Assembly (NCBI GenBank): GCA_050256425.1
Contig: JBBWVW010000086.1
Coordinates: 1,015 to 65,014 of the forward strand
Reading direction: 5' to 3'
Source: Arenicellales bacterium
GTDB lineage: Bacteria > Pseudomonadota > Gammaproteobacteria > Arenicellales > UBA868
DNA length: 64,000 nucleotides
Part shown: positions 10,188 through 26,728 of the stretch, piece after piece
Layout of the letters: each line of letters starts with the position of its first letter
Position numbering within the stretch: the stretch's first letter is position 1
Made by a program: the position numbers and the translations under genes
Notes under the pieces: model-generated
What the model was told of the DNA's origin: nothing
The model's database searches: none
Seen by the model: the letters and a program-made list of their open reading frames with translations, nothing else

Positions 10188-10204
10188 GTCTTCAATACGT
10201 TAAG

Positions 10205-11023: not shown

Positions 11024-11118
11024 AGCTAATGAAGAGTCTATTTTGTGGATTCTCAGCCAGTCTTCTTGATACGAATCGACGGGCCAAAGTACTCTATTCG
11101 ACTTTGATCGATCGCCGA

Positions 11119-11907
11119 CTATGGTGCTTCATCAGTGCCCCGTTCTTCGATACTTGAAGCCGCCCGGAATGTCTCCATTAAATGTTCGCGAAGTTTTTGA
11201 ACTTCGGAATCCTTAGCGTTACGCTCTTCTGGTAATGAAACGACGATCTCGTCCCTGATTTTCCCTGGTGAACCGGCCATGATCACGGCGCGGTCGGCCA
11301 TCAACACCGCTTCATCAATATTGTGAGTGACTATAACTAGATTTATTCCCAGGCTTTTTGCAATAGAGCGAACATCTTTTTGCAAAGCGGCCCGCGTGAA
11401 CGCGTCCAGAGCTGAAAATGGTTCATCAAGAAGCAGCATTTCGGGCTCCATAACCAAGGACCTTGCGAGCGCCACTCTTTGTTGCTGGCCGCCCGATAAA
11501 TCCTGAACGTTTGAGTCCGCAAAGTCTTCAAGATCTACGAGTTTTATGGTTTTCTCCACACGTTCTTGAATTTTTGATTCTGGCCAGTGAGCGAACTTCA
11601 AGCCGATGCCCACGTTCTGGCGAACATGCATCCACGGAAACAAATGGGGCGCTTGGAACATCATCACCCACCGCGGAGATGGATCCTTCACCGGGACATC
11701 ATCGATTCGGATTTCACCAGCAGTGGGGGCCAACAACCCTGCCATAATATGAAGTAAGGTCGACTTGCCACAACCAGATCGCCCAATAATTGCCAGTACC
11801 TCTCCAGGCAACGATTCTAGATTGACCTGGTCAAAGGTTATCGGGCCACGCGATGCATAGCTATGACTTAGTTCTTTTACGGCGATATGCACGCCCTGCT
11901 TACTCAT
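11119..11907 (-). CDS. ABC transporter ATP-binding protein (NrtD/TauB-like)
   Basis: GRSGCGKST, LSGGQQQR, LLLDEPF and VTH. Start is ATG 11907 or 11952. Confidence 0.93.
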   Translation of the reverse strand: MSKQGVHIAVKELSHSYASRGPITFDQVNLESLPGEVLAIIGRSGCGKSTLLHIMAGLLAPTAGEIRIDDVPVKDPSPRWVMMFQAPHLFPWMHVRQNVGIGLKFAHWPESKIQERVEKTIKLVDLEDFADSNVQDLSGGQQQRVALARSLVMEPEMLLLDEPFSALDAFTRAALQKDVRSIAKSLGINLVIVTHNIDEAVLMADRAVIMAGSPGKIRDEIVVSLPEERNAKDSEVQKLREHLMETFRAASSIEERGTDEAP

Positions 11908-12111
11908 TTCGCCCCTCCTCCTTACGATCTTTATATTTCTTGCGGCTTCCATAATAGGCCAAGCCGAAACTAATCTAACAACATCGACTAAATGCCATTA
12001 CAACATAATGGTTACTTGAATTAACCTTGAGGTTAGTAATAAGGTAATGCCTTTATACTTTAAGTATCCCATAAGTTATCCAAACAGTTAAACTGCAAAC
12101 ATACTTTCTCT

Positions 12112-12149
12112 AAGACGATCTAGTTATCTCCTAAATAGGAAATTCCTAT
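12112..12149 (-). promoter_or_regulatory. LysR-type operator copy 1, facing the ABC ATPase/permease operon
   Basis: Minus strand ATAGG-aattt-CCTAT-ttagga-GATAA-ctag-ATCGTCTT; contains a T-N11-A dyad. Confidence 0.75.
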
Positions 12150-12252
12150 TGGTGCTATTGGTTCTTCTTAAGAACAAGGGTAAACGTAAGAAATGCTAAC
12201 TCAAGATTTTACGATGGCAAACGGCCAATGAACTAGCCCTTGGGCAAAAACC

Positions 12253-13209
12253 ATGCCACGCAACACAATATTTCCTCGCTCCCTAAGGTACCTTTTAGCA
12301 GTCGCCAAGCACTCCAGTTTTACGCGCGCCGCAGAATCCTTGTTCGTTTCTCAGCCCGCTCTTTCCCAACAGATAAAACAACTTGAAGCGCAGATCGGCA
12401 TTCAATTGCTGGAACGTTCCGGACGGAATGTACACCTAACAGATGCCGGAGAAATTTATGTACACCACGTCAAGCGAGCGCTCGCAGAAATAAATGCTGC
12501 TGCGCAGGCCTTAGATGACCTAAGCGACCTAACGCGAGGCTCGCTGAACCTGGGGTTAACGCCAATAACCGACTACCTAACGGCGCCTCTAATCCGAGAC
12601 TTTATCACCAAATACCCGAGAATCTCTTTAAACACTATCGAGATGACACAGCAACAGATTGAAGAAGCGGTGCTGCAGGATCAGGTAAATCTTGGAGTCA
12701 TCTTCAGTGATTCATTTTCTCTTTCTACAAGATCGGCGGATCTAGAGATCTACACACTCTTAACTGACTCCCTCGTGTTGGCGGCCGCGAGTTCCACCCA
12801 TCTAACCACTAATGCTAATGAATGCCTCTATTTGGAAGAAGTTGGCTTAGTGAAGCACCCATTAGCGTTATTGAACTCACAGTTTGAGATGCGAAAGCAA
12901 ATTGATGCGTACTTTTCTTACCATGAGATTACGCCGAACGTCACACTAGAATCCAACTCACTCGGTGTAATTATCGAAGTCGTTCGCTCCGGAGAATTAC
13001 ATACAATATTACCCGCATCAATCGTCAAGTCACTAGGCGGTCTTACTCCACTCACGGTGAGCCCGCCGCTGCCGCAACACACTGTCACTATCATTATCAG
13101 AAAGTCTGCCTATCAAAGTCAGGCTTGTAGCGCTTTCCTTAAGCTTGCGCTGCTTTGGAGTCAGGTCCCTAGAGGCGTGCTCGCAGCAGCAAACAAGGCC
13201 CATGGATAA
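12253..13209 (+). CDS. cynR: CynR-like LysR-family transcriptional regulator
   Basis: HSSFTRAAESLFVSQPALSQQIKQLE and DLSDLTRGSL resemble E. coli CynR; cyanase is nearby. Confidence 0.8.
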   Translation: MPRNTIFPRSLRYLLAVAKHSSFTRAAESLFVSQPALSQQIKQLEAQIGIQLLERSGRNVHLTDAGEIYVHHVKRALAEINAAAQALDDLSDLTRGSLNLGLTPITDYLTAPLIRDFITKYPRISLNTIEMTQQQIEEAVLQDQVNLGVIFSDSFSLSTRSADLEIYTLLTDSLVLAAASSTHLTTNANECLYLEEVGLVKHPLALLNSQFEMRKQIDAYFSYHEITPNVTLESNSLGVIIEVVRSGELHTILPASIVKSLGGLTPLTVSPPLPQHTVTIIIRKSAYQSQACSAFLKLALLWSQVPRGVLAAANKAHG

Positions 13210-13355
13210 CCTAGACAACAACCTAAGTGAACCTTCTTTGGAGAGTTATCAATCATCGCACTTCATTCTTTTGAAAGCGCAAAGCCATTGTAATTAGCTG
13301 GTCTCTTGCTTGGCCGCAGCCTGTTTTTCAGTGATTTCTTTATCCGTCTTTCAAG

Positions 13356-14642
13356 TTAATCTACTTCCTTGCTGATTTGCCGATCAAACAACGACGGTCC
13401 ATAGAGCTCATTGGTGATAAGCGTGCAAATGGTCACAGCAATTATTGAGAAAATCGCCGCCTCGTAAGACAGGGTAAATTCAAGAACAATTAGAACCGTT
13501 GAAATCGGGGCCCCGAAAACAGCGGCAGCGACTGCAGCCATTCCTGCGATACTCAGACTTTCGCCTCCGGCAATTCCCAGAGCGGCTACCATTTTCCCAA
13601 ACAAACACCCTACCCCTGCGCCGATAAAAAGCGATGGCAAGTACACGCCGCCGTGCATCCCGCAGCCGATACATGTCACAGTAAGGAGCAGTTTAGATAT
13701 AACCAAAATTACTATTGTGGTCACCGCAAGATTGTTATGAAGAAGATCTGGAATTACATCAAGGCCAAGACCAAGCGCCCCGGGAACCCAAATTCCAATT
13801 ACTCCGCAGACCATTGCCGCAAAAATTAATGGCCCGATCCGCCCTTTCCAGGAATGATCAACCTTTTCGGTTACCTTCCCGAGCATAATCATGAAAACAA
13901 CTGCTGTAATCGCAAAAATAGGAGCGCCAAGGATAACAAACGGAAGTAACTCCAGCATCGAGCCTCCGACAACCTGATCGAATTGAATCCGACGTTCACC
14001 CAACATTTGTTCACTTAGGGCACTAGCCGTAATAGCCGCTATCGAAATCGGAGCAACTGCTCGTAGTGAGAATCGACGTAACACAACCTCATGGGAGAAA
14101 ACGATTGCCGCCATCGGCGTACCAAAGCCTGCGGCAATGGCGCCAGCAACACCGCATCCAATCCACGTCGAAGTAGAAATCGTGCTCCGAAGCACTCTAG
14201 AAACACCAGACCCGATAGCTCCACCGAAATGAACCAAGGGCCCATACTGTCCGACTGAAGCTGCCCCTCCAACCGAAATCAGCGCCGCCAGTGTAGAGCC
14301 AAAGCCAATTCGGATATCAACAACTTCACCAGATTGTGCAGCTTGAATCGTTTCTGCTGGGCCGTGAAACCGTTCGACTCTAAGGATGCGACGCAATCCA
14401 TATATGAGAAACGCCGCGGCCAGAAGAAATACCGGGCTGACAATTACTACCCATCCGTCCCCGTAACTTGAGGCGATGCGTCCAATAAAATCCGAGAAAT
14501 GTTTTATAGACTCTGCGATAAAAAGAAAGCCGCTCGCCGCGATGGCCATTATGGCTCCAATTCCCACTCCAACACCAACTCTTAAAAAAGAGTCTCTAAT
14601 AGGGCGATGACCCAGTTCTTTCACTGTTAAGTTTGTTTCCAT
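13356..14642 (-). CDS. CLC-family anion channel/transporter, atypical, no CBS domains
   Basis: GQYGPLVHFGG, GVAGAIAAGFGTPMAA, GGVYLPSLFIGA and AAVFGAPIS. Start trimmed to ATG 14642. Confidence 0.88.
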   Translation of the reverse strand: METNLTVKELGHRPIRDSFLRVGVGVGIGAIMAIAASGFLFIAESIKHFSDFIGRIASSYGDGWVVIVSPVFLLAAAFLIYGLRRILRVERFHGPAETIQAAQSGEVVDIRIGFGSTLAALISVGGAASVGQYGPLVHFGGAIGSGVSRVLRSTISTSTWIGCGVAGAIAAGFGTPMAAIVFSHEVVLRRFSLRAVAPISIAAITASALSEQMLGERRIQFDQVVGGSMLELLPFVILGAPIFAITAVVFMIMLGKVTEKVDHSWKGRIGPLIFAAMVCGVIGIWVPGALGLGLDVIPDLLHNNLAVTTIVILVISKLLLTVTCIGCGMHGGVYLPSLFIGAGVGCLFGKMVAALGIAGGESLSIAGMAAVAAAVFGAPISTVLIVLEFTLSYEAAIFSIIAVTICTLITNELYGPSLFDRQISKEVD

Positions 14643-14754
14643 ACTACCGGTCTGCAATCGTTGCCTTTGTGCACTATGAGACCAGCCCAGGTCAACGCCC
14701 AATCGTGCTATGGCTTCTCGAACCTTTTAAATGTTTCGTCTGGCGACGTGGCCC

Positions 14755-15195
14755 TCACCACGAACGGTACGGGAGAAACTTTCCACTCAAATCAAGGCGT
14801 ACTCGATCTCCATTTTCATTTTCTTCTCTAGATAAAGTCATTCTGAAATCGATCGCAGACATTATCCCATCCCCGAATTCCTCATGTATCAGCTCTTTAA
14901 TTGTCTCCCCATATACCCCTACCATTTCATAAAGCCTGTATATCACCGGATCCGTCGGTACGGTCTGTTCCCATTTTTTGTTTGGAAACTGCTGCAACGC
15001 AATTGATGCGTCCGCTGATAGCTCGAGATAGTTCACGACAGCATCCGCGTCCTCTTTATCCATATGGTTCATGCCAAGACAAGCCGAAACGACAAACTCA
15101 GGAGACATCGAGGTCTGCTCTGCTATCTGCCTCCATGAAACCGATTTCTTCGTTTTCGCTGTCTTGATCTCCTCTGACATCTTTACCTTATCCAT
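14755..15195 (-). CDS. cynS: Cyanate hydratase (cyanase)
   Basis: PTDPVIYRLYE, IHEEFGDGIMSAIDF and GKFLPY. ATG 15195 has a GGGAG SD. Confidence 0.96.
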   Translation of the reverse strand: MDKVKMSEEIKTAKTKKSVSWRQIAEQTSMSPEFVVSACLGMNHMDKEDADAVVNYLELSADASIALQQFPNKKWEQTVPTDPVIYRLYEMVGVYGETIKELIHEEFGDGIMSAIDFRMTLSREENENGDRVRLDLSGKFLPYRSW

Positions 15196-15298
15196 TTTCA
15201 AGCTCCCTAACCAAATTGTTTGTTGATGTATTGATGAACAACCTTATAGACCCAGGTACAACATTGTGATCTGATCGCGCCCACGCACTATGTGATAT

Positions 15299-16303
15299 CT
15301 AGTTCTGGCCAGAACGCTGAAGTAGTCTGGCGTCATTTGCCATCCCATAGATTTCAATGTTCCAACCTAACTCGACATCCAGTTGCTTTCGAGCAAGTCC
15401 GCGAAGTCGCTCGCCGAACCTCTCTATTTCAGATACGTCTAATTTCTTTTTCCCGATCAGAATATTCGGATAACGAGAATCCAGCCGTAGGCTTGAATCG
15501 GCGTCCTGCAAATCCCCAAGTTCAGCAATAATAGCTTTTGCTTTTGGGAGTTCTAGCTGCGACTTGGCATTATCGAATTCTTTTTGAATCACATAAAACG
15601 CATGTCCTGTGCGAAAACGCTCTGTTGAGTATGTTTTCTGATGTAGTGCTTTCATTCGAGAAAGCTTCTCCTCGAGTAAGGCAACGCGTCTTCGCTCTGG
15701 CTTAAGGACGGCCTGGACGATCACGCCGGTCTTAAGTTTCTCGCACAGCCTTGTGACCGTATCGACGTGGCCACGCTTTATTGTCTCTACCCGCCCATCT
15801 CGCCTCACAATCGTCGCGCGTAAAAAAGAATCGAGGATGCCGTTCTCAGCAAAACACGCGTTGCTGGCGAGGGCTCCACCAATGGTTCCGGGAATTGCCC
15901 CCAGAAAGGTAAGGTCAAAACCGTTTTCCAGCGCTTTTAGCACAATGTCTTTGGTGAATGCTCCTGCGCCCACTCGTATGGCGTTATTGGGCAGCACCTC
16001 AAAACCATTAAAGCGGGCCCCTAGGGACACTACTAGGCCCGCGAACCCCTCCTTTCTGAAAATCACATTCGAGCCTGACCCAGATGGAAGCACGGCAATT
16101 GATTCGGGCAGATCACGCATCAGAACACATAGGTCTGCCATATTCAAAGGTTGAATCAGTGCTACGGCCTTCCCACCAGAGTTAAACCACGTTTGTAGCG
16201 CAAAGTGAGCATCAAACTCAATATCACCTTGGATGTTGCCCAAGTAAGGCTTCGCGTCATTAGCCGTTAACGGCGACCCATCCTTACTGATAATGCTGCG
16301 CAA
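15299..16303 (-). CDS. MurB-fold FAD-binding protein with substituted catalytic residues
   Basis: FAD motifs GSGSNV and GAIPGTIGGAL are retained. SxGSVF is replaced by RTGHAF, HANF by YPNI, and LxxE by LGWN. Confidence 0.7.
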   Translation of the reverse strand: MRSIISKDGSPLTANDAKPYLGNIQGDIEFDAHFALQTWFNSGGKAVALIQPLNMADLCVLMRDLPESIAVLPSGSGSNVIFRKEGFAGLVVSLGARFNGFEVLPNNAIRVGAGAFTKDIVLKALENGFDLTFLGAIPGTIGGALASNACFAENGILDSFLRATIVRRDGRVETIKRGHVDTVTRLCEKLKTGVIVQAVLKPERRRVALLEEKLSRMKALHQKTYSTERFRTGHAFYVIQKEFDNAKSQLELPKAKAIIAELGDLQDADSSLRLDSRYPNILIGKKKLDVSEIERFGERLRGLARKQLDVELGWNIEIYGMANDARLLQRSGQN

Positions 16304-16474
16304 AATAGTGCTACCTCGGCGAATACTATCTTTCGTTAGTTTCTCATCCGCTTTATCTTCGACGCCATCTTAGATTGTCTGACACACCAGGGTGGCCCCG
16401 CTTGAAAAAGTGTATCTACAGCCATTCTCATTGTAAAACTCTGGGATTCTCAGTGATCAGCTCGCCTAGGCCAG

Positions 16475-16512
16475 ATAGGTTTTTCCTATTCTCTGGATAA
16501 AATAATCGTCTT
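16475..16512 (+). promoter_or_regulatory. LysR-type operator copy 2, facing DUF1348
   Basis: ATAGG-ttttt-CCTAT-tctctg-GATAA-aata-ATCGTCTT running into TTGAAT (-35-like). Confidence 0.78.
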
Positions 16513-16628
16513 GAATTTGACCACATCGCTGTCATGATGTTTCGTAGACTTGAAAGGCTCGATCTTCAAAATAGTCAAATTCACTATAGTTCGTCGAACT
16601 GAAATAACCAGAGGTTTTGGGAGGATTA

Positions 16629-17099
16629 ATGCAACCAACTGATCTTAAACCCCCGTTTAACTCGTCTACTGCAGCCAAAAAAGTACAGATGGCTGAGAAC
16701 GCATGGAATACTCGCGATCCAGAACGTGTGAGCCTGGCCTATACACCAGATAGCACATGGCGGAATCGCTCAGAACATTTCCAGGGACGAGACGCCATCG
16801 TGAAATTTCTTACCAAGAAATGGGAGAAAGAACTTGATTATCGTTTAGTCAAAGAACTCTGGGCATTTTCAGAGAACCGCATAGCCGTACGATTCCAGTA
16901 TGAATGGCGCGATCAAGAACAACATTGGCACAGATCATATGGAAACGAGCTGTGGGAATTTTCCGAAGAGGGCTTAATGCGGCGGCGGGAAGCAAGCATC
17001 AATGATGTTGCTATTGATGTTAGCCAACGTCGATTTTTCTGGCCCAGCCCAGGCCATCGACCCTCTGACCATGCTGGCCTGCTTCAGAGCCCAGAGTAA
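16629..17099 (+). CDS. DUF1348 / SnoaL-like (NTF2-fold) protein
   Basis: [36 protein letters not shown] and [10 protein letters not shown]; GGAGGA SD. Confidence 0.9.
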
Positions 17100-17228
17100 T
17101 TTAATGAGCTTATTAACCAGTGGTGGAATACTGGCGCCCGGTCCCCCTATTCTACAAATCGAGCCGCGGTGTGCTGCCACCCCAGGCAAGAAACTGCGCG
17201 GTGAACTACTGCCTTCGTGATCGTATTC

Positions 17229-17645
17229 TCAGGAAGTCTTTTGGGTGTGAGCGTTAAATTTTTTGAGAAACCCGGCTAACGAATAAATAGCTTGCTGGAC
17301 TTCGGAATCACGCAACAATCGAATCAATCCCAGATACCCACCATGACTCATGTTTTTTTCATCATTAGCGCCATCAAGGAGTTTCTCAGAGGTAAGCGCT
17401 TTTGCGACGCCCTCTAAATTCTCTTGCACTGCAGGGTCGCCTAGCGCCTGCAAGAGATGCATCAGCCCTTCGTTTCTCGTCACACGATCCATCAGGATCA
17501 TTCCTTCCCCAATCGTTGCTGCCAAACGTGTAACGATATCGTCAGTCATTGCATCCTGCGCGGCTGCAATGGCTGATGCTAACTCAATTAATTTATCAAG
17601 ATTTTGGGTTTCCAGATTGGCGCCCGCTTCTTTCAATTCGTTCAT
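17229..17645 (-). CDS. DUF1641-domain protein
   Basis: GYLGLIRLLRDSEVQQAI terminus; the family typically follows SQR-like genes. Confidence 0.75.
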   Translation of the reverse strand: MNELKEAGANLETQNLDKLIELASAIAAAQDAMTDDIVTRLAATIGEGMILMDRVTRNEGLMHLLQALGDPAVQENLEGVAKALTSEKLLDGANDEKNMSHGGYLGLIRLLRDSEVQQAIYSLAGFLKKFNAHTQKTS

Positions 17646-17695
17646 CGTATTTTTTCCATAGACATTGCAGTTGATGTTCTGGAAACTACTTTCGA

Positions 17696-18829
17696 TCAGA
17701 GAAGACCTCGCGCCGAGGACCAATACCATTGGTTATAGGACATCTTCAGCATGTGCATCGACTTGGTTGGCGGCCTGATTTCCGGTGGATCAATATAATT
17801 GAAGCATGCATTAGTTGCGCGGTCCTGGTCTGCTTCGATAAAGCAATACACCTTGCCGTCGTACTCTCGTGTTGCCGTCCCGGTTCGACAAAGAGATGCG
17901 ATGTTCTCACCGATTACTTCACTTTCAAAGTGGGCGGTTGAACCTGTTTTGCTGATTGGCAGGTTAGTGGTATCACCAAGCACGAAGACGTTATCCTGGC
18001 CGTCCATCCTTAGCGAATAACGGTCAGTCGGTATCCAGCCCCCCTCGCCAAGGTTATTATCTTCTATCACCTGCATACCTCTGTGAGGAGGGACGGCGAC
18101 TAACAGATCGAATTCTTTTTCTGTCCCCTCTTCGCTATGTACGATTTTGTTTTCGACATCGATCTCTTTCATATTGAAGAAAGTTTCGTAATCGACTTCC
18201 ATCCGCGCAAATTCCGGGATTGCCCATTTCGCGATGTTTTCAATGTTGTGTATCCGCGCAATCGGATAGGTGTACTTGAGATCGACCTTGTCGCGAATGC
18301 CGCGTTTTTTAAAAAATTCATGCAGCATGAAAGTGATCTCGATCGGCGCGATGGGACACTTATGCGGAACACCAACCACCACCACTACCTTGCCCCCTTC
18401 GAAGTCGCGCAGTTTTTTAAACATACTGACAGCGCCGTCTCGGGTATACGGTGTTTCAGACGACTCCTTAAGTCCAGGCACCTCGTCATATACCGCTTCA
18501 CAACCAGTCGCTATCACTAGCATGTCATAGTCATGGACAACCCCGGCTTTGGTACGAACGCGGTTACTGCTCATTTCAAATTCTTCAACAGGATCAACGA
18601 AAAACTTGATGCCCGGCTCCAAAAGACTCGATTGATCACGACAAATATCGTTAAGAGCCATTTTGCCAAACGCAACGTAAAGGAGCCCAGGCTGATACCA
18701 GTGTTGGTCCGAAGCGGACAACATTGTGATCTCCACGCTGCCTTGTCTGATTTCTTTGGAGAGTCGTCGCGCAACATTGTTTGCGGCGATCGTTCCGCCC
18801 ATTCCACCCCCGACGAACAGAATTCTCAT
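17696..18829 (-). CDS. sqr: Sulfide:quinone oxidoreductase-like flavoprotein (type III-like)
   Basis: GGGMGG FAD motif, HKCPIAPIE, VPPHRG, LPISKTGSTAHFE and VYCFIE (two active-site Cys). Confidence 0.8.
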   Translation of the reverse strand: MRILFVGGGMGGTIAANNVARRLSKEIRQGSVEITMLSASDQHWYQPGLLYVAFGKMALNDICRDQSSLLEPGIKFFVDPVEEFEMSSNRVRTKAGVVHDYDMLVIATGCEAVYDEVPGLKESSETPYTRDGAVSMFKKLRDFEGGKVVVVVGVPHKCPIAPIEITFMLHEFFKKRGIRDKVDLKYTYPIARIHNIENIAKWAIPEFARMEVDYETFFNMKEIDVENKIVHSEEGTEKEFDLLVAVPPHRGMQVIEDNNLGEGGWIPTDRYSLRMDGQDNVFVLGDTTNLPISKTGSTAHFESEVIGENIASLCRTGTATREYDGKVYCFIEADQDRATNACFNYIDPPEIRPPTKSMHMLKMSYNQWYWSSARGLL

Positions 18830-18914
18830 TTAGACCTCCTTATGAAATGCCAAACCCACTTTCGAAAAATACTTTTCACCACATACAAACTAACACCAGA
18901 CGGAAAGGGATATT

Positions 18915-19145
18915 TCACTTTATCTTGCGAACCTTTATGTGCCATACGTCATCGATCTTTTCGTTGCTAACAAGCTCGTGACCCACTTTACTGATCCACT
19001 CCGGTACATCGTTTGCAGAACCTTTATCGGTAGACAGCAGTTCTAACTGGTCTCCGACTCCAGCCCGCTTCATGAATGAGATCAGTTCCATCAACGGCCC
19101 TGGACAAAAAGTGTTCCGGGCATCGACTATTTTTTCTTCGGACAT
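18915..19145 (-). CDS. tusA: TusA-family sulfur carrier
   Basis: VDARNTFCPGPLM (CPxP) and DVPEWI motifs. Confidence 0.9.
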   Translation of the reverse strand: MSEEKIVDARNTFCPGPLMELISFMKRAGVGDQLELLSTDKGSANDVPEWISKVGHELVSNEKIDDVWHIKVRKIK

Positions 19146-19183
19146 AACGCTTCTCCACAAATGACACTTAGTGCCAGTTTCGT

Positions 19184-19576
19184 CTAAAACGAGACTATTC
19201 TTCCGTCTTCTGCATCAGAGAGGAACCGGGTCAATCCAGTAGCAGGTCCAAACTCTAACATCAGATCATCTGGACTAACCTTAAGGAGATCTAGAGCCAT
19301 TGAGCAGGCCAATAATTTAGCATCTCCGAGTTCGGCTGCCTGTTCAAATAATACCCTGAACTCTGGGACGCCCTTGACACCGATTAAATCCCCGAATGGT
19401 CCCTCCTTTGGCGGCACTAAGGTCGCATTCTGCTTAACGAGGAATTGAAGAGCGTTCATCGAAAAAAAGACCGACACTTCGCTTCCACTTGCTGCCGCGA
19501 CAGAAGCGACCATCGCTGCCATTTGCAGTTTTTCGAGTGTTCCAGAAACACAAATTATTGATAGTTTGCTAGTCAT
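19184..19576 (-). CDS. DsrE/DsrF/DrsH-like (DsrE2-type) sulfurtransferase
   Basis: SGTLEK, AAASGSEVSVFFS and KLLACSMALDLL (conserved Cys). Confidence 0.85.
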   Translation of the reverse strand: MTSKLSIICVSGTLEKLQMAAMVASVAAASGSEVSVFFSMNALQFLVKQNATLVPPKEGPFGDLIGVKGVPEFRVLFEQAAELGDAKLLACSMALDLLKVSPDDLMLEFGPATGLTRFLSDAEDGRIVSF

Positions 19577-19732
19577 GCTGATACTTGATTGGTAGTGAAC
19601 CGAACCTGTGTGAAGGAGCTCTAATTCTTGAAGAGCCTCACCTAACGGAGTTTTACGAAACTAGGCTTGTCATCTTCAGAGGCGCAACCCTATGAGTCTA
19701 CGAGACATCCTGACCCCAATGTGGCCAGTTTC

Positions 19733-19770
19733 AAGACGATAATTTTATCTGAAGAATAGGAAAAACCTAT
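19733..19770 (-). promoter_or_regulatory. LysR-type operator copy 3, facing dsrE-tusA-sqr
   Basis: Minus strand ATAGG-ttttt-CCTAT-tcttca-GATAA-aatt-ATCGTCTT running into TTGAAA. Confidence 0.78.
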
Positions 19771-19877
19771 ACTGGCCAAGCAAACTTATAACTAAAGCGT
19801 TAAAAACCTCAACAAGCAGTGTTCCTGAAAATCTACTATTCAGCCAGATCAGATGACCTTTGGGCTTGGTAGAGAAA

Positions 19878-20606
19878 TCAGCTCTCGCTTTGGATATGCC
19901 GCCTCACTGCCCAGCCCGAAAAACCCCCAAGCACCAGCCATAAGATCAGACTGCTAAGGCCAGTGGCTAGCAGAAAATCTTTTGACAACTCGGAGAGTTG
20001 ATCAGCGATGGCTATCGGAAACCCTTCGTAGAGATTCTCCGCGTGCGGTGCACCGTATATATGTGGCGCGCACAGAAGAACAACCAACCCGAGCCACTTC
20101 CATGGGCTACTCAGTATGTAGGCCAGGTACATACCTGCCCCACTACAGATTACAGTCGCTGTCCACCACCATTGCCTTAGTTCTAACGCAGCACCGGAAA
20201 CCCCCGGGATTTCAGGAGAAATACCAAAAGAAGGAGCGGCAAAAAAGGCAATGAAGCCTCCAAGGCCCCAAATGATCCCGGAAGAGGCGCTGATTTCAGT
20301 ATTTTTCCCAAACTTCAGTGAGGCCGTAGCTATTAAAGCGACCAGGACAAGTGCAAATCCAACAGCAGTTAATACGTTCGATAAAATCGTAAACAGAGTT
20401 CGCTCGATTCCATCACTGGGTTCCCAGTCCTCATCATGCTGGCCATCAGCGACTTGCGCTGTGTCTCCGGCGCCGACTTTCAGGCTTTCAAATTTCTCAG
20501 CCTGAACAATGATCGGAATCACTTGCCAGCGCTGGGCCAGACTGAGGGCAATGCCCCCAATCAGCCCAGCGATAAGCGCTATAACGATCAGCCGGCGAAA
20601 CAGCAT
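19878..20606 (-). CDS. cbtA: Cobalt transporter subunit CbtA
   Basis: VIPIIVQAEKFE, WEPSDGIERT, APSFGISPEIPG, RQWWW and PHIYGAP. Start trimmed to ATG 20606. Confidence 0.88.
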   Translation of the reverse strand: MLFRRLIVIALIAGLIGGIALSLAQRWQVIPIIVQAEKFESLKVGAGDTAQVADGQHDEDWEPSDGIERTLFTILSNVLTAVGFALVLVALIATASLKFGKNTEISASSGIIWGLGGFIAFFAAPSFGISPEIPGVSGAALELRQWWWTATVICSGAGMYLAYILSSPWKWLGLVVLLCAPHIYGAPHAENLYEGFPIAIADQLSELSKDFLLATGLSSLILWLVLGGFSGWAVRRHIQSES

Positions 20607-20619
20607 AACCGCCGCGGCC

Positions 20620-20814
20620 TTAGTGGCAGGGGAAGCCTTGAGAATGGCGCATATCGTGCCCCGCATTGTGGACTGATGATGTCTGAACAAAAGCGGCGGC
20701 AAACAACACTGTGGCACCAAGGGCAAACGCGCAAACAAGCTGCAAGCCCTTGCTGGCAAGCATTGGCGCTACCTGTGGAACTTCAACAACGTTTTGGTTG
20801 ACATGATTTTGCAT
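20620..20814 (-). CDS. cbtB: Cobalt transporter subunit CbtB
   Basis: Single TM helix followed by HNAGHDMRHSQGFPCH. Confidence 0.9.
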   Translation of the reverse strand: MQNHVNQNVVEVPQVAPMLASKGLQLVCAFALGATVLFAAAFVQTSSVHNAGHDMRHSQGFPCH

Positions 20815-20888
20815 AACTAAATCTCCTGGATTAAATTTTTTGACCACTAATCTTTAACCACTTTAGATGGTATTTTCGTATCGTCCGT

Positions 20889-22292
20889 TTAGATGATAAA
20901 CACCTCTTCGCGTTCGAACGGATTATCACCCTTTGGCACACTTGGATCGTTTCTCCATTCCGGATTAGCCATTAAAGAATTCCTTATATAGTCGTACTGC
21001 ACCAAGTCATTGACGACGAACTCTGGATCTAAAGTATCCAAGAACGTTCTATCGCCAGTGACTACCGTTTCGTTTTTCAACTCGTTTACTACCAAGCGTG
21101 TCGCAGAGGGGTAAGGCCATGCTTGGAAATCAATCCGATTTTGACCCCATTCTGTATGACGGATAGCTGCAGGATTATTGTAGTACGCCGGGTCGTAGAA
21201 CAACATAGCGCGCTCGACCACCTTGCTGGGGAAGGGATAGTACTTCTTGCCCTCACGCGACAACATCTGGGCCATTTCCTTGCGGTTAGATCCGGTGTAC
21301 AACTGGGCTTTAACAATCGCGTTATGCACTCCTTGAGCCCACGCAGCATGTTCTGGATCCATACAATCATCTTCATGCATGACTACGACACAGCATGGGT
21401 GTCCTTTCCAGACGTCGCCAGTGAATCGAAGCACTTTGCCGCCTGCCTTGATTTCACCTAAGGCATTAAAGGGTTCCGCAACGCAATACCCATCTATTTT
21501 TTTGGCCGCCAAAGCTGGTGGCATATCGGGCGGTGCTAAGACCTGGTAATTACATTCGTTTGCCGCCAAAGCTGCATCTTGTGGTCGAATGACCGATGTA
21601 ATACCTGCCGCTTTCATGATTTTTTGAGAGACGATATTATGAATTGAGTACCAATATGGTACAGCGAATTGCTTACCGCCAAAATCTGCCGGCGTCTTAA
21701 TATCTGCGTTTACAACGATCGCCGATCCGTTACTGTGATCCCAGGCGGTGACCTTCACCGGATACTGATTGTTATACCTCATCCAAATTGGTATCGGGAT
21801 AAGCATATGGGTCAGATTAAATCGGTGTGCAGAGAAAGCCTCTACCAGTGGAGACCAACCTCTAATGAGGGTTGGACGCTTGGAGTCAATACCTTCTTCT
21901 TTGAAGAAGCCCAGTTCATGTGCGACCAGAAGTGCTGCTGCGTCCGTGATCGGTATGTAGCAAATATTGATAACTGGATCGAATTTTTTCTTACCGAATG
22001 CGGGAAGCCCTGTAAGCCCAGTACCAGCAAGTGCTGCGCCGGCCTGAAGGACCGAGCGGCGGCTGATTCCCGTTCCCATAAATCCGCCAAACAGTGGATC
22101 AGAATTTGTCTTTAGGTATGGATCATCAATTCCATCACCAAATTTCTTGGCATCGAGGGGCAGACCCTTTTCATCAATGGGACCACCATCGACAAACTGC
22201 GCTTCCTCTGGGTCTAATAACTCTTTCTTAATAGCCGTAGACTGCGCTTTTGCTGCTAGAAACTTCACCTCTTCCTGTGTTAGCTTAGACAT
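20889..22292 (-). CDS. ABC transporter substrate-binding protein (NrtA/CmpA/CynA-like)
   Basis: YIPITDAAALLVAHELGFF, AVPYWYSIHN, GYCVAEPFNA and HPCCVVV; internal TAT motif SRRSVLQ. Confidence 0.9.
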   Translation of the reverse strand: MSKLTQEEVKFLAAKAQSTAIKKELLDPEEAQFVDGGPIDEKGLPLDAKKFGDGIDDPYLKTNSDPLFGGFMGTGISRRSVLQAGAALAGTGLTGLPAFGKKKFDPVINICYIPITDAAALLVAHELGFFKEEGIDSKRPTLIRGWSPLVEAFSAHRFNLTHMLIPIPIWMRYNNQYPVKVTAWDHSNGSAIVVNADIKTPADFGGKQFAVPYWYSIHNIVSQKIMKAAGITSVIRPQDAALAANECNYQVLAPPDMPPALAAKKIDGYCVAEPFNALGEIKAGGKVLRFTGDVWKGHPCCVVVMHEDDCMDPEHAAWAQGVHNAIVKAQLYTGSNRKEMAQMLSREGKKYYPFPSKVVERAMLFYDPAYYNNPAAIRHTEWGQNRIDFQAWPYPSATRLVVNELKNETVVTGDRTFLDTLDPEFVVNDLVQYDYIRNSLMANPEWRNDPSVPKGDNPFEREEVFII

Positions 22293-22479
22293 ACCTTTCC
22301 TCCAGCGTTAGCCGTTTTCTATTTAAAGTTAAAGTCTAATTCCTTCCAGAACGTATACTCGTCTTCTTATTACATCTGTCTCTCGTATATAACCTCACTA
22401 ACTTCCAATTGATTGTGTGCGTCCAATAGTAACTTGCGTTTTGGTACTATCGAGCCCAGCTGGCCTGCTTGCATTTCGC

Positions 22480-22815
22480 TCAAACTGCGTTCAGTCGCGT
22501 TTCAATAACCTTCATTTGTTGCGCAAGATCTTCTTCCGTAATAACTCCCCGTAGAATCATGCTGTGAGCAAGTGCAAGAAGTTGACGCTCTGGATGTGGA
22601 ATGTGCTTATAGTGATCCTCTACCAGATCATCCTCTTCACCCCGTCGTTCTAGAACAGGCAGGGCACACGCCCCCTCGTTGAGAACTTCACAGGTACTTT
22701 CGAGTGTTATCCTCCAGGGAGGATCTGGATTATCAACGCCATACTCCTCGCATAGGTCGGCCCACACCCGTCCTTCCTTTCCAATCTGTTCCAGCAATGG
22801 AATTGGTTTAGACAT
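22480..22815 (-). CDS. Thiocyanate hydrolase activator/accessory protein (P15K-like)
   Basis: Directly after scnC. NHase-beta-like C-terminus HPERQLLALAHSMILRGVITEEDLAQQM. Confidence 0.7.
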   Translation of the reverse strand: MSKPIPLLEQIGKEGRVWADLCEEYGVDNPDPPWRITLESTCEVLNEGACALPVLERRGEEDDLVEDHYKHIPHPERQLLALAHSMILRGVITEEDLAQQMKVIETRLNAV

Positions 22816-22824
22816 TTTTCAGAC

Positions 22825-23535
22825 CTAATGACCGTAAGGATGTACTGCGCGGTGAATCGGCCGCGTGTCGTCCGCCTTTCGATCTGCGCGTGGCATTGCG
22901 ACACCGATCAAGCAATCCCGTGTCACGATCTCCGCTAGTTGATCTTCGCTCCACCCTTCAGTGCCTTCAGGGCGGGTTGGCATCACCACGTATCTGGTCT
23001 TCTGGTTGGAATCAGCGACCCTTATTTCGACATCCTCGGGCAACTGCAGGCCGAACTCTGCTAGGACTTGGCGCGGCCACCTGACCAGTCGGCGACGATA
23101 ATTAGGGGTTCTGTACCACTCAGGGGACTGACCCAGTATAGGTCTTGGGTAGCAAGAACAAAGCGTGCACACCACTACATGCTTAAGCGTTGGTGTATCC
23201 ACCAGAATCCGGGGGTTGCAATAGTCGCTCGGTGTCCCAAACTTGGTTGGCATCGTGTTAATCCAGTCAATGCCTACATCAAGACTCGCCTTTACAGGAT
23301 CGTCTATACATAGTTGCTTGTAATCTTCATCTAGCCACGCCTTTGCGACCAATCGACCCGCGGGAAGCGGCCCAAGGGTATGCATATACTCTGTCCACTG
23401 GTTATGGTCATCTTGAGTGAATAGCCCTTTTTCAATACAGAGTTCACGGACCGCTACCTCAAGTACTTCAAAGTCGCTGACCTCATCCACCATAGGCGCA
23501 GGTGGACGGTGATCGTGATCATGTGAGTTTGACAT
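22825..23535 (-). CDS. scnC: Thiocyanate hydrolase gamma subunit (cobalt-binding)
   Basis: VVCTLCSCYPRPILGQSPEWYR. Thr marks Co-type, and Arg after YP is SCNase-like (NHases have Trp). Closely resembles Thiobacillus thioparus ScnC as I recall it. Confidence 0.95.
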   Translation of the reverse strand: MSNSHDHDHRPPAPMVDEVSDFEVLEVAVRELCIEKGLFTQDDHNQWTEYMHTLGPLPAGRLVAKAWLDEDYKQLCIDDPVKASLDVGIDWINTMPTKFGTPSDYCNPRILVDTPTLKHVVVCTLCSCYPRPILGQSPEWYRTPNYRRRLVRWPRQVLAEFGLQLPEDVEIRVADSNQKTRYVVMPTRPEGTEGWSEDQLAEIVTRDCLIGVAMPRADRKADDTRPIHRAVHPYGH

Positions 23536-23612
23536 TATGTTTTCCTCTTTACGTCAGACGAGTTCTTTTTCGTTTTTTACTTTGTGATCGATAGTAAAAT
23601 TATCTAGGCCGA

Positions 23613-23966
23613 TCAAATAGCCTCTAACCATCTTTCAGATAGTTCGGTCTCGAGCGTATCCCCTGCAAATTTGGGGGGATAATCTGGCCATAGGTCAGTT
23701 TGATTGAACACTACACTGTAGAACCACTCTGGAGTGTCTGTGTTATCCCAAGCCTCGTCCTCGGCAGCAGGACTTTCGTAAACCAACTTGACGACTATTG
23801 CCTCTGCTTCGCGAAGGTACATCTGCGAACGGGAATAGAAGATATCTGGCAAGTTGCGGATGCGCACTTTATCGCCCACGTTAAACTTCGGCTTTCCTGC
23901 CTCTCCCTTGAAGCACTGAGGATCCCCAATGCCAGTTGCTTTCTCAGCGTGATGATTATTACTCAT
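23613..23966 (-). CDS. scnA: Thiocyanate hydrolase alpha subunit
   Basis: ATGIGDPQCFKG, KFNVGDKVRI, LVYESPAAEDEA and DTLETE. Confidence 0.93.
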   Translation of the reverse strand: MSNNHHAEKATGIGDPQCFKGEAGKPKFNVGDKVRIRNLPDIFYSRSQMYLREAEAIVVKLVYESPAAEDEAWDNTDTPEWFYSVVFNQTDLWPDYPPKFAGDTLETELSERWLEAI

Positions 23967-24393
23967 AAATCTCCCCTCGCTTCTTAACCTCGTCGATCTT
24001 ATTAACCAATTCGGTCAGGGTAATATGCTGCTTGTCGACCAGCACTAGCGCCGCTGTCATCAACCACCTGCCGTAATACGGTAGCCCGAGGTATTGGGTC
24101 TGCCCGACGTCCACGTTTTGCCGCCGCCTACGCTCTTCAGCGTTCCAAACGCCACGCCATGCTAATACCTCACAGGTGACAAAAGTATTGTGTTCCCAAA
24201 TCTCCTCTTCTTTTTCTTCCCACGTTATAGGAATGTCGGCCTCACCTCCAACATCATGGGAGGAGCGTGTGTAAGCGCGGTAATGCGCGTTATCAATTAG
24301 GTCGGGATAAGGGGCGTGCTGCGGCTGATGAAGCGCAGGCTGAAGCTGCGCAACAATATTTAGATGCCGCATGATATTTTCGCGAGTTGACAT
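23959..24393 (-). CDS. scnB: Thiocyanate hydrolase beta subunit
   Basis: QPALHQ, HDVGGEAD, EKEEEIWE, LAWRGVWNAEERRRRQN and YLGLPYYGRW. Start trimmed to ATG 24393; overlaps scnA by 8 nt. Confidence 0.93.
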   Translation of the reverse strand: MSTRENIMRHLNIVAQLQPALHQPQHAPYPDLIDNAHYRAYTRSSHDVGGEADIPITWEEKEEEIWEHNTFVTCEVLAWRGVWNAEERRRRQNVDVGQTQYLGLPYYGRWLMTAALVLVDKQHITLTELVNKIDEVKKRGEIYE

Positions 24394-24458
24394 ATCTGTT
24401 TTGCGTCTCCGAATTGGAATTCTCAGCTTAAAACTACTCCTTGATCGTCCTTTGTGCC

Positions 24459-24496
24459 AAGACATTCTGGTTATTGACTGTATAAGAAAAGTCTAT
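24459..24496 (-). promoter_or_regulatory. LysR-type operator copy 4 (diverged), facing scnB
   Basis: Minus strand ATAGA-ctttt-CTTAT-acagtc-AATAA-ccag-AATGTCTT with identical spacing, running into TTGGCA; TAGTTT lies 18 nt further on. Confidence 0.65.
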
Positions 24497-24852
24497 TTAA
24501 TTTCTCAGGCAATCTCCAAACCTCTAGGATCAATCCAGACATCTAAGATTGTATAGCTTATTAACCATATCTCAATCATGGTAAATAAGCTTTAGTCGCC
24601 TGTATTTTTGAATAGCTGGCCCAATAGCGGGCTCACGCAAGTGTTTTGAAGCAACACGGGCATCAAGCCCTTCACCTAACACGATGCCCACGAGCAAACC
24701 CGAAGCAACAGCCACCCAAAAAACCGAACAGCCAAAAGCTGTATTTCAGCCTTCAACGCACCGTAACGATATGATTAGATTAATGAGCCTGGGCTTTAAT
24801 GGCGTTTCCAACACCTTGTCGCAAACTTGAACCTATTTCTTGCTACGGATTT

Positions 24853-25035
24853 TTAGGAAACTGAAGACATCTTATTCTTCCTTTTCTCAAGTTCCTTTAG
24901 CAGCGTAGTTTTCGCATAAGGCTTAAGAGCCTTCCATTTCTGACATTCCGCTTTAGTCCGCCCGCAGCCACGACACCAGCCTTTCGGTCCACCAAAATCG
25001 CAAACATCAATACACGGGCTTTTGTTGTGTTTCAC
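24853..25035 (-). CDS. DUF1289-domain small Cys-rich protein
   Basis: SPCIDVC...GWCRGCGRT..E...W pattern. Confidence 0.85.
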   Translation of the reverse strand: MKHNKSPCIDVCDFGGPKGWCRGCGRTKAECQKWKALKPYAKTTLLKELEKRKNKMSSVS

Positions 25036-25082
25036 AAATTCTTCGATCGCCGTCTATATCCCAATGATTACCAGTAATCAAA

Positions 25083-25526
25083 TCATTGTTGCAGGGTGCG
25101 TAAAATCCGATCAATCCCTGGCTCTAACTGGCGGAGCCGATTGAACTCTTCGTATAAACGATGTTCCAGATTCTTGAAATTTAAAGGAAGTACTCTTTGA
25201 CAAATACTATACCCATCGCCCATCACGTCATAACCTTTCCAACTTCGAATTTGTTCCCCTTCAGAATCTAGAAAGTCTCTAATAAAGGTCTGCTGCGACG
25301 GGCAATCCTCCTCCGCATGCATACAAATAGGGAAGACTTTTTGTCGAAGCTGTGGAGCTTCGATGTACGTTTCGAAATGCACCCCGCCCTGGCTCTCGTT
25401 GTACCAGGTGTCCTTATATAGTTGAAGGTACACGCCACGGTTGTATATCTCCCAACCATCCGCAAACCAGCTCGATTGCTCTAGTTTGCTCTGAAGATTA
25501 CGAAAAATAATTTTTAGATCTTTCAT
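25083..25526 (-). CDS. Hypothetical protein
   Basis: 147-aa ORF co-oriented between the PhzF-like and DUF1289 genes; no family recognised. Confidence 0.7.
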   Translation of the reverse strand: MKDLKIIFRNLQSKLEQSSWFADGWEIYNRGVYLQLYKDTWYNESQGGVHFETYIEAPQLRQKVFPICMHAEEDCPSQQTFIRDFLDSEGEQIRSWKGYDVMGDGYSICQRVLPLNFKNLEHRLYEEFNRLRQLEPGIDRILRTLQQ

Positions 25527-25548
25527 TTCTATCGACCTCGAGCACTCT

Positions 25549-26337
25549 CTAGTAATCAATCAAATCGCCCGAGACCAGGGTACAGCAAGGGCCTGAGACC
25601 TGAACACCATCGCTTAGTAATTTACAAAACATATTCCCGCCCTGTGGAGACAGTTGCTGGGAAGTAAGCTCGCTCTTTGACAGATGCGATGCCCAATAAG
25701 GAACCAAGGAACACTGTGCGACACCAGACACCGGATCCTCTGGAACTCCATTTGCCGGAGCAAAGAACCTCAAAACATAATCTGTTTCCTCTCCAGGTGC
25801 AGTCGCCGCAATAGTTGGGAGATCCAACTCTTCAAGAGAGAGAAAATCGGGCTCCAGAGACTGGACATCAGTAGCTTTGTCGTAAACCGCTACATAATGC
25901 CTTCCTTTAAGGACTTGCCGTGGAGGTTTCCCCAGGCCCACGCACAAACTATCTGGCGGATCACAAGGTTTTACCGTATCGGCGGGCAAAACCATAGCCA
26001 AATTACCCGAATCCCGAAAAGCGGACAATCTCCCACTCAAACTTGAAACTAGGGTAACTTCGTCTCGCCGAGGTTCCAGTTCAGACAAGACAACGTGAGC
26101 TGCCGCCAGCGTGGCGTGCCCGACAAGGGGCAACTCTTTTGTTGGCGTAAACCAGCGAATTGAGTATTCGCCGCTGCCTCCACTGATAAATGCCGTCTCG
26201 GAGACATTGAACTCCTTCGCCAGCGCCTGTAATTGATCGTCGTGCAGTTCTTGTGAAATTACACAAACGACTGCCGGGTTTCCAGAATATGGCTTGGCGC
26301 TAAAGGCATCCACCCAGTACATCCGATTACTTGTCAT
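25549..26337 (-). CDS. PhzF-family isomerase/epimerase-like protein
   Basis: VDAFSAKPYSGNPA, SETAF, RWFTP.KELPLVGHATLA, RFFAP and EDPVSG. Confidence 0.88.
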   Translation of the reverse strand: MTSNRMYWVDAFSAKPYSGNPAVVCVISQELHDDQLQALAKEFNVSETAFISGGSGEYSIRWFTPTKELPLVGHATLAAAHVVLSELEPRRDEVTLVSSLSGRLSAFRDSGNLAMVLPADTVKPCDPPDSLCVGLGKPPRQVLKGRHYVAVYDKATDVQSLEPDFLSLEELDLPTIAATAPGEETDYVLRFFAPANGVPEDPVSGVAQCSLVPYWASHLSKSELTSQQLSPQGGNMFCKLLSDGVQVSGPCCTLVSGDLIDY

Positions 26338-26728
26338 TTGATCACCCACTAGCTCCTTTTACTTCGAATCAATCTTGGCATATTTATTTAATAATATGAC
26401 GAGCATCCAGTACTAATTCAATCGCTGCTGAAAAAGTTGCATAGCCGAGCATTATGGCAAACAACGCGCAATGAACTAGGCCTGCGACGATGCTTGCATA
26501 CTTTTGTTAATTTTCTCGTTGGAGAATTCAGTGAAACATCGATTTGTTGCTGCGTTTGAGGTAGCAATTCGGCGAAGAGCCGTCATGGAAGAAATAAGAT
26601 TTGATAAAACCCCTAGATCATCGATTGGCTGTCAAATGCTCACTCTATGATGGAACTACCAGCCCTGGTCGCGGTGACTGGGCTGATCAACATGTCGTTT
26701 TGCTGGCGACAACGGGCGCGTGGCGCCC

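Follow-up and report, generated by a model that had tools for sequence, protein, structure and literature searches.

The window analysed here is a 64-kb stretch of contig JBBWVW010000086.1 (positions 1,015 to 65,014, forward strand) from an Arenicellales bacterium, whose assembly GCA_050256425.1 is a metagenome-assembled genome (MAG) of 2.67 Mb in 199 contigs with a completeness of 91%. A block at ~9.4–26.3 kb of this window (9375-26349) carries genes for thiocyanate hydrolase (SCNase), cyanase and sulfide oxidation, and has a G+C content of 0.479, compared with 0.58–0.60 in the flanks. The flanking genes are ordinary chromosomal ones, encoding MsrPQ-like proteins, an RRM protein, peptidase M20, arginyl-tRNA synthetase, Rho and a DEAD-box helicase. 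The 64 kb contain no tRNA gene, and no integrase or transposase was seen among the open reading frames (ORFs) scanned at the borders. With its low GC, the block represents a thiocyanate-utilisation island of the conserved scn type that a marine Arenicellales-like gammaproteobacterium has gained horizontally. The gene cluster has already been published for Thiobacillus thioparus and appears here as a rearranged copy in a marine host, which makes the finding largely ordinary. No hydrolase for carbonyl sulfide (COS) accompanies the island; this lack is real, yet it is the rule for scn clusters and not an anomaly.

We compared the island with 80 loci that contain close ScnC relatives (74–90% identity), each taken with as much as 10 kb of flanking sequence per side and together representing 79 distinct genomes. 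Full flanks are available for 47 of the 80 loci, referred to below as full-length. The lists that follow give, for most genes, the number of these loci in which they travel with SCNase. The listed genes of the block lie on the minus strand, except those for a DUF1348 protein and a LysR-type regulator, which are both on the plus strand.

The SCNase unit consists of three adjacent subunit genes and a small ORF:

23959-24465, minus strand: scnB, SCNase beta subunit, corresponding to the N-terminal half of nitrile hydratase beta; PF21006, 63 bits; homolog in 80/80 loci
23613-23966, minus strand: scnA, SCNase alpha subunit, corresponding to the C-terminal half of nitrile hydratase beta; PF02211, 69 bits; 80/80 loci
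22825-23535, minus strand: scnC, SCNase gamma subunit (catalytic, Co-binding); PF02979; 417 bits to PDB 2DD4_C
22480-22815, minus strand: 111-aa ORF, positional counterpart of the SCNase activator P15K; homolog in 75/80 loci

The three Pfam families fall on three neighboring ORFs, as expected of a three-subunit SCNase. ScnC aligns over nearly its full length with the gamma subunit of the T. thioparus enzyme, whereas its score to any nitrile hydratase is at most 178 bits. Its metal site, VCTLCSCYPR, is identical to that of 2DD4_C, with the CTLCSC motif and the following arginine kept. COS and NH3 have been shown biochemically as SCNase products only for the T. thioparus enzyme (PMC5328954, PMC5745022). 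The 111-aa ORF has no Pfam or NCBIfam match, and its homologs directly follow scnC in the loci that carry one, including that of T. thioparus DSM 505. P15K is described as an SCNase activator by Kataoka 2006, as far as that work is cited in PMC5458468. Just upstream of scnB lies a 158-aa ORF (25083-25559) with no Pfam or NCBIfam match, kept at 68–75% identity only in the four islands of the same genus (L002-L005). Elsewhere in the genome, a second gene of the nitrile hydratase alpha type (contig C47:11177-11779) presumably belongs to an ordinary nitrile hydratase, its product sharing ~40–43% identity with ScnC; paralogs of this sort occur commonly in the genus.

A second group of genes forms the sulfide-oxidising module:

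19184-19576, minus strand: DsrE-family sulfur carrier; PF13686/PF02635; 61/80 loci
18915-19160, minus strand: TusA-family sulfur carrier; PF01206, 70 bits; 64/80 loci
17696-18829, minus strand: type III-like sulfide:quinone reductase (SQR); PF07992 (Pyr_redox_2); 63/80 loci
17229-17729, minus strand: DUF1641 protein, partner of the SQR-like protein; PF07849, 28 bits; 56-63/80 loci

The SQR-like flavoprotein has 377 residues, which is short for an SQR, and its gene runs 34 nt into the start of the DUF1641 gene. Its best model is the type III SQR (selenoprotein subtype) NF049943, with 308 bits against a cut-off of 525. An alignment with human SQOR shows that both redox cysteines of SQR are kept. 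In related loci that carry the pair, the DUF1641 gene always directly follows the SQR gene, and the SQR-like gene is present in 43 of the 47 full-length loci (~91%).

The third group comprises the cyanase, a regulator and three copies of a palindrome:

14755-15201, minus strand: cynS, cyanase; NF002773, 192 bits, and TIGR00673, 149 bits, both above cut-off; 50/80 loci
12253-13209, plus strand: LysR-type regulator; CynR model NF008416, 318.9 bits against a cut-off of 277; homolog in 71/80 loci
12135-12149, no strand: ATAGG-N5-CCTAT palindrome in the divergent promoter region of cynR and the ATPase gene of an ATP-binding cassette (ABC) transporter
16475-16489, no strand: ATAGG-N5-CCTAT palindrome in the divergent promoter region of the DUF1348 gene and the MurB-like-cynS unit; within the inverted-repeat arm 16452-16550
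19756-19770, no strand: ATAGG-N5-CCTAT palindrome upstream of dsrE; within the inverted-repeat arm 19695-19793

CynS contains the C-terminal Cyanate_lyase domain and CYNS_N, keeps the catalytic Arg, Glu and Ser residues, and is the only cyanase of the genome. The sequence-only reading of the locus had named an SCNase, a cyanase and a sulfide-oxidising module, and all three withstand this closer inspection.

The regulator belongs to the CynR class by score, and its effector could be cyanate (OCN-) or, equally, thiocyanate (SCN-). The three palindromes are the only perfect copies in the 64 kb and all lie in island promoters, where chance would give 0.84 occurrences even with one mismatch allowed. 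The motif is also enriched in related loci (11 found, ~1.3 expected), upstream of scnB and cynR, and 10 of the 11 boxes sit within 400 nt upstream of scn-cluster genes. We regard the box at 19756 and its kin as putative CynR operators. Two of the boxes lie in the arms of a 99-nt inverted repeat with 78% complementarity (16452-16550 and 19695-19793). The arms stand upstream of the DUF1348 gene and of dsrE, each oriented alike with respect to its gene, and the repeat looks like a duplicated promoter or regulatory region. No perfect box precedes scnBAC in this window, whereas related loci often have one upstream of scnB. A different palindrome with 13-nt arms, GCTTATTAACCAT-N9-ATGGTAAATAAGC, occupies 24556-24590 upstream of scnB and may reflect either an operator that has diverged or control by a second regulator.

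Among 31 genomes from the order, cyanase occurs in exactly the 5 that carry scn and in 0 of the 26 others (exact probability ~6e-6). The divergence of cynS tracks that of ScnC about as closely as other accessory genes do (rho 0.47). Because the regulator scores as CynR, the boxes are shared, cynS co-occurs with scn and the two diverge in step, cynS is an integral, probably co-regulated gene of the island.

The remaining genes serve import and cobalt uptake or are accessory:

20889-22292, minus strand: NMT1/SsuA-family ABC substrate-binding protein; PF13379, 114 bits; 74/80 loci
11119-11952, minus strand: ABC transporter ATPase; PF00005, 127 bits; 71/80 loci
10205-11023, minus strand: ABC transporter permease; PF00528; 69/80 loci
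9375-10187, minus strand: second ABC permease (NtrB/TauC-like); TIGR01183, 136 bits
20623-20847, minus strand: CbtB, small subunit of a cobalt transporter; PF09489, 62 bits
19878-20759, minus strand: CbtA, cobalt transporter subunit; PF09490, 158 bits, and TIGR02458 above cut-off; 30/80 loci
13356-14702, minus strand: CLC-family anion channel or exchanger, directly downstream of cynS; PF00654, 201 bits; 4/80 loci
16629-17099, plus strand: DUF1348 protein (NTF2/SnoaL fold), accessory gene; PF07080, 214 bits; 18/80 loci
15299-16303, minus strand: MurB-derived FAD_binding_4 protein; 119 bits to MurB NF010480, cut-off 259

The NMT1/SsuA-family protein is a probable binder of SCN- or another pseudohalide, and the CLC-family protein, found only in the islands of this genus and one other, may act as a pseudohalide channel. 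Cobalt uptake is served by CbtA in the loci counted above and by CbiM in 24 others.

Kantor et al. in 2015 reportedly spoke of a 'conserved operon' for the scn cluster of the Thiobacillus thioparus type. The architecture has been published for T. thioparus DSM 505 and Thioalkalivibrio thiocyanodenitrificans (Berben et al. 2017, PMC5328954), and the cluster is called a conserved operon in PMC5458468. A comparison with the map of T. thioparus DSM 505 finds every listed member in our window: scnBAC, the activator-like ORF, a NitT/TauT-type ABC transporter, DsrE, TusA, SQR and the trailing DUF1641 hypothetical protein, together with cyanase, cobalt uptake and a divergent LysR regulator. As in the T. 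thioparus and Thioalkalivibrio clusters, no COS hydrolase (COSase) is linked. The common order in related loci is cynR (divergent), cbiM, cynS, in some loci a methyltransferase gene, then scnB, scnA, scnC, the 111-aa ORF, the ABC genes, dsrE, tusA, SQR and DUF1641; gene set and order are shared by T. thioparus DSM 505, strain SCN1 and Halochromatium. In beta- and gammaproteobacteria, scnB is immediately preceded by cynS, encoded on the same strand. The genus studied here departs from this order: cynS is found downstream, and the genes for the ATPase and permeases are separated from that for the binding protein. The window also differs from the T. thioparus type in having CbtAB rather than CbiM, in lacking an S-adenosylmethionine (SAM)-methyltransferase, in its extra MurB-like, CLC and DUF1348 genes, and in its host, a marine MAG without any beta-carbonic anhydrase (beta-CA).

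When all ORFs of the 80 loci were clustered de novo, further families emerged: a SAM-methyltransferase (40 loci), a GlcF-like Fe-S protein (33), CbiM (24), an alpha/beta-hydrolase (12), CbtB and a porin. The gene for the SAM-dependent methyltransferase is placed ~2 kb upstream of scnC, between cynS and scnB (e.g., L009:5516-6334), in loci that include that of T. thioparus. Marine gammaproteobacterial loci (L007, L010, L023, L034 and others) carry two families of small ORFs beside cynS and cynR, of ~107 aa in 21 loci and ~88 aa in 12; both are absent from this window, and the representative of the 107-aa family has no Pfam match.

The window holds no cynT, beta-CA or COSase, as noted from sequence at the outset, and the absence extends to the whole 91%-complete genome, for which a search for a COSase-type beta-CA had been proposed. 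PF00484 (beta-CA) gave 0 matches across the 2.67 Mb, while the controls worked, and tblastn with the beta-CAs of four relatives reached a best E of ~0.5, i.e., no homolog. In these four relatives, a closed genome included, beta-CA adjoins a Rieske oxygenase gene. The Rieske ortholog of our genome (C45:9933-11105, 71–73% identity) sits in the middle of a 22-kb contig and is followed by a GNAT gene and an enolase-superfamily gene. Since this syntenic site is assembled and occupied by other genes, the missing beta-CA is no assembly gap at the expected position. It is very unlikely that a COSase or beta-CA resides in the unassembled ~9% of the MAG. The completeness estimate and the fragmentation into 199 contigs leave room for one, and the beta-CA genes of relatives often lie on short contigs. 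Against this stand the intact syntenic site and the way beta-CA is distributed in the genus, where it is present in 8 of 19 genomes and lacking from 11, among them three others that are at least 90% complete (G004, G008, G014). Closed scn-bearing genomes without any beta-CA also exist. Moreover, the beta-CA of the genus is not of the COSase type: it is a Can-type housekeeping enzyme with ~185–195 bits to Pro_CA, whereas the score to Pro_CA is ~55 bits for the verified COSase ortholog of T. thioparus DSM 505, which reaches 384 bits to PDB 3VQJ. Within the genus, beta-CA is unrelated to scn (3/5 scn-bearing versus 5/14 scn-lacking genomes).

The reference for a dedicated enzyme is the COSase of T. 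thioparus THI115 (PDB 3VQJ), a clade D beta-CA; in this model organism it follows an SCNase of the same type and completes the COS pathway. Our genome contains no homolog of it. The ortholog in T. thioparus DSM 505 is unlinked to scn, being encoded on a different scaffold from the operon. With four types of beta-CA query, no linked beta-CA was found at any of the 80 loci. PF00484 is altogether absent from 28 of the 79 scn-bearing genomes (35%), including two closed chromosomes (G036, G042), strain SCN1 and Halochromatium roseum, and only about six of the 79 contain a protein in the score and length class of COSase. A dedicated COS hydrolase is thus absent here, as in most scn-bearing genomes.

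Other carbonic anhydrases were sought as well. The genome encodes no alpha-CA and no iota-CA (PF08332); a search for CsoSCA gave no match, and its control was silent too. One gamma-CA family protein is present (C156:15655-16179), and the contig with RuBisCO carries a 462-aa form II-like enzyme without carboxysome genes. Alpha-CA, nitrogenase, CO dehydrogenase and RuBisCO are known as weak COS degraders (PMC5745022), and the same source notes abiotic COS hydrolysis and the emission of COS by T. thioparus itself.

A further possibility is that the island itself holds a novel COS-handling activity, provided by the DUF1348 protein, by the MurB-like protein, or by the DsrE/TusA/SQR/DUF1641 module acting on COS. 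The module is retained in ~91% of full-length loci though COSase is never linked, and the DUF1348 gene, which has its own operator copy, occurs in several lineages and co-diversifies with ScnC (rho 0.69). Iota-CAs are NTF2-fold enzymes. The DUF1348 protein was therefore considered as a metal-free, iota-CA-like COS hydrolase, and this candidate was dropped for want of support. The protein scores 198 bits to, and is 60% identical with, a Pseudomonas fluorescens structural-genomics protein of unknown function (PDB 2IMJ), and its family is found in fungi too. The nearest folds of its predicted model (pLDDT 93) are 2IMJ, followed almost exclusively by ketosteroid isomerases and one SalBIII (epoxide hydrolase/cyclase-like), and no iota-CA or any other CA appears among the top 50 PDB folds. 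The gene is also missing from 62 of the 80 loci.

The MurB-like protein fares no better as a pathway enzyme. It is not a true MurB, given its score below the model cut-off and the lack of the MurB_C domain (PF02873), which the true MurBs among its distant matches have. Among 5.8 billion proteins, its relatives at 41% identity or above number only a handful, all of them without MurB_C. The gene is found in 3 of the 80 loci, only in this genus, and the proteins are 41–43% identical between islands whose ScnC are ~89% identical. Because it is confined to the genus and diverges so much faster than ScnC, we consider it a fast-evolving lineage accessory rather than a core enzyme. De novo clustering brought up no further conserved hydrolase-like family near scn as a candidate for a hidden COSase, and the SQR keeps its ordinary sulfide-oxidising cysteines. 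A new COS activity within the island therefore appears improbable; both the MurB-like and the DUF1348 proteins are most likely lineage-specific accessories and not COS processors.

The sequence-only reading had suggested that one of these two proteins makes cyanate and HS- from COS or a thiocarbamate intermediate, feeding CynS and SQR. Beyond the narrow distribution of both genes and the missing likeness to iota-CA, this idea predicts more frequent linkage of cynS in the absence of beta-CA. The counts do not show this: cynS is linked in 20 of 28 loci from genomes without beta-CA and 30 of 52 with it (p = 0.33), and in 13/19 versus 19/28 of the full-length loci. DUF1348 and MurB-like linkage likewise shows no enrichment in genomes without beta-CA, and the expectation is not borne out for any of the three genes across the 80 loci.

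Thiocarbamate can decompose to cyanate and sulfide. Cyanate could accordingly arise at SCNase itself, if its thiocarbamate partitioned in vivo partly or mainly to cyanate and HS- instead of COS and NH3; cyanase would then free the nitrogen, the SQR module would take the sulfide directly, and no COS hydrolase would be needed. The linkage of cynS to scn (32 of the 47 full-length loci), its position directly upstream of scnB in beta- and gammaproteobacteria, its strict co-occurrence with scn in the order, its status as the sole cyanase of this genome, the CynR-like score of the regulator and the 35% of scn genomes without beta-CA are all consistent with such a branch. If true, it would explain together the SCNase genomes that lack beta-CA, the strict coupling of scn and cynS and the CynR-type control of the island, and it would answer a 70-year-old puzzle, the thiocyanate-induced cyanase of thiobacilli that use the COS pathway. 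However, the T. thioparus enzyme, from a cluster of the same architecture that includes cynS, makes COS, and the cells emit it (PMC5745022, PMC5328954). The lack of cynS enrichment in genomes without beta-CA also speaks against it, as does the absence of linked cynS from about one-third of full-length loci. In addition, two closed genomes without beta-CA (L010 and L034, discussed below) have cynS and no sulfur module, which fits scavenging of nitrogen from SCN- and OCN- equally well. On balance, we judge a cyanate branch at SCNase unlikely.

The initial reading took cyanase to mark a separate pathway, a premise overtaken by literature in which cyanase is no marker of the cyanate pathway (PMC5328954, PMC6504805). 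That pathway, known from Thioalkalivibrio and Thiohalobacter, also degrades thiocyanate, and cyanate and reduced sulfur are or could be its intermediates. It depends on thiocyanate dehydrogenase (TcDH), a periplasmic copper enzyme unrelated to SCNase, and Pfam scans of the island revealed nothing TcDH-like. Cyanase genes are present in some TcDH carriers (PMC6504805). A closer parallel is the cynR-cynTSX system of E. coli, in which, as in our island, a CynR-class LysR regulator is divergent from its targets and paired with a cyanase that keeps its catalytic residues. Unlike the E. coli system, the island has neither cynT (a beta-CA) nor cynX, and its regulon adds SCNase, an ABC importer, cobalt uptake and the sulfide-oxidation module.

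The two closed chromosomes OZ252002.1 and OZ241890.1 (loci L010 and L034) carry compact islands made of cynR, cynS, scnBAC, the 111-aa ORF, ABC genes and a porin, without a DsrE-TusA-SQR module and with no beta-CA anywhere in the genome. They look like cases of nitrogen-only use of thiocyanate and cyanate, and possibly represent a COS-releasing genotype. Scavenging of nitrogen alone could be proposed for our island too: NH3 would be drawn from SCN- and OCN-, COS would diffuse away, and the sulfur module would take sulfide formed spontaneously. The cynR-cynS-scnBAC-ABC arrangement of these two genomes, the marine planktonic character of the host lineage (as judged from the closest loci) and the fact that even T. 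thioparus emits COS (PMC5745022) are in line with this proposal. Here, however, the complete DsrE-TusA-SQR-DUF1641 module stands under the same operator, which argues for sulfur recovery, and we find a purely nitrogen-directed role rather unlikely.

With a probability of roughly 60%, we favor the reading that an island of a known type here follows the canonical COS route, with COS handled by non-dedicated catalysts or partly lost. It is preferred because an unlinked COSase is the rule for scn clusters, SCNase without beta-CA is a real genotype and candidate alternative catalysts are present in the genome. In this scheme, the CynR-type regulator would act at the ATAGG-N5-CCTAT operators and switch on the ABC importer, the cynS unit and the sulfur module. 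Imported SCN- would be hydrolysed in the cytoplasm by the cobalt-containing ScnBAC, matured with the help of the P15K-like protein and of cobalt supplied via CbtAB. By analogy to the T. thioparus enzyme, with which the gamma subunit aligns nearly full length, the products would be NH3 and COS. COS would then be converted slowly to H2S and CO2 by non-dedicated catalysts, or escape in part; candidates are the gamma-CA family protein, a side-activity of the form II RuBisCO and abiotic hydrolysis, and the identity of the COS-acting catalyst here is a point that we infer. The sulfide would be caught by the type III-like SQR with DUF1641, and the sulfane sulfur passed to TusA and DsrE. The most probable substrate of the cyanase is cyanate brought in through the same pseudohalide importer or generated as a minor by-product. 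This outcome matches one branch of the sequence-only reading, in which COS either is released or falls to an unlinked enzyme, and the comparison of loci favors that branch through the 0/80 linked beta-CAs, the separate scaffold of the T. thioparus COSase and the 28/79 genomes without beta-CA.

Several points weigh against the canonical COS route. Hydrolysis of COS rests on candidates: no COS activity of a gamma-CA was found documented, and RuBisCO activity on COS is low. The good conservation of the sulfide module, in 43 of 47 full-length loci, implies that sulfide is released efficiently, a poor fit with slow hydrolysis by non-dedicated catalysts. A pure COS route offers no proven reason for the strict coupling of scn and cynS. 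Finally, an estimated 9% of the genome is missing from the MAG.

If the comparison of the 80 loci is borne out, a dedicated COSase would be a peculiarity of Thiobacillus rather than a general part of the SCNase pathway, about one-third of SCNase carriers being without beta-CA. Cyanase and a CynR-type regulator would belong to the scn island, and planktonic marine gammaproteobacteria would count among its carriers. COS released by SCNase from cells without COS hydrolase could constitute a small biological source of marine COS. The comparison also sharpens an old question, namely why a cyanase accompanies a COS-forming SCNase.

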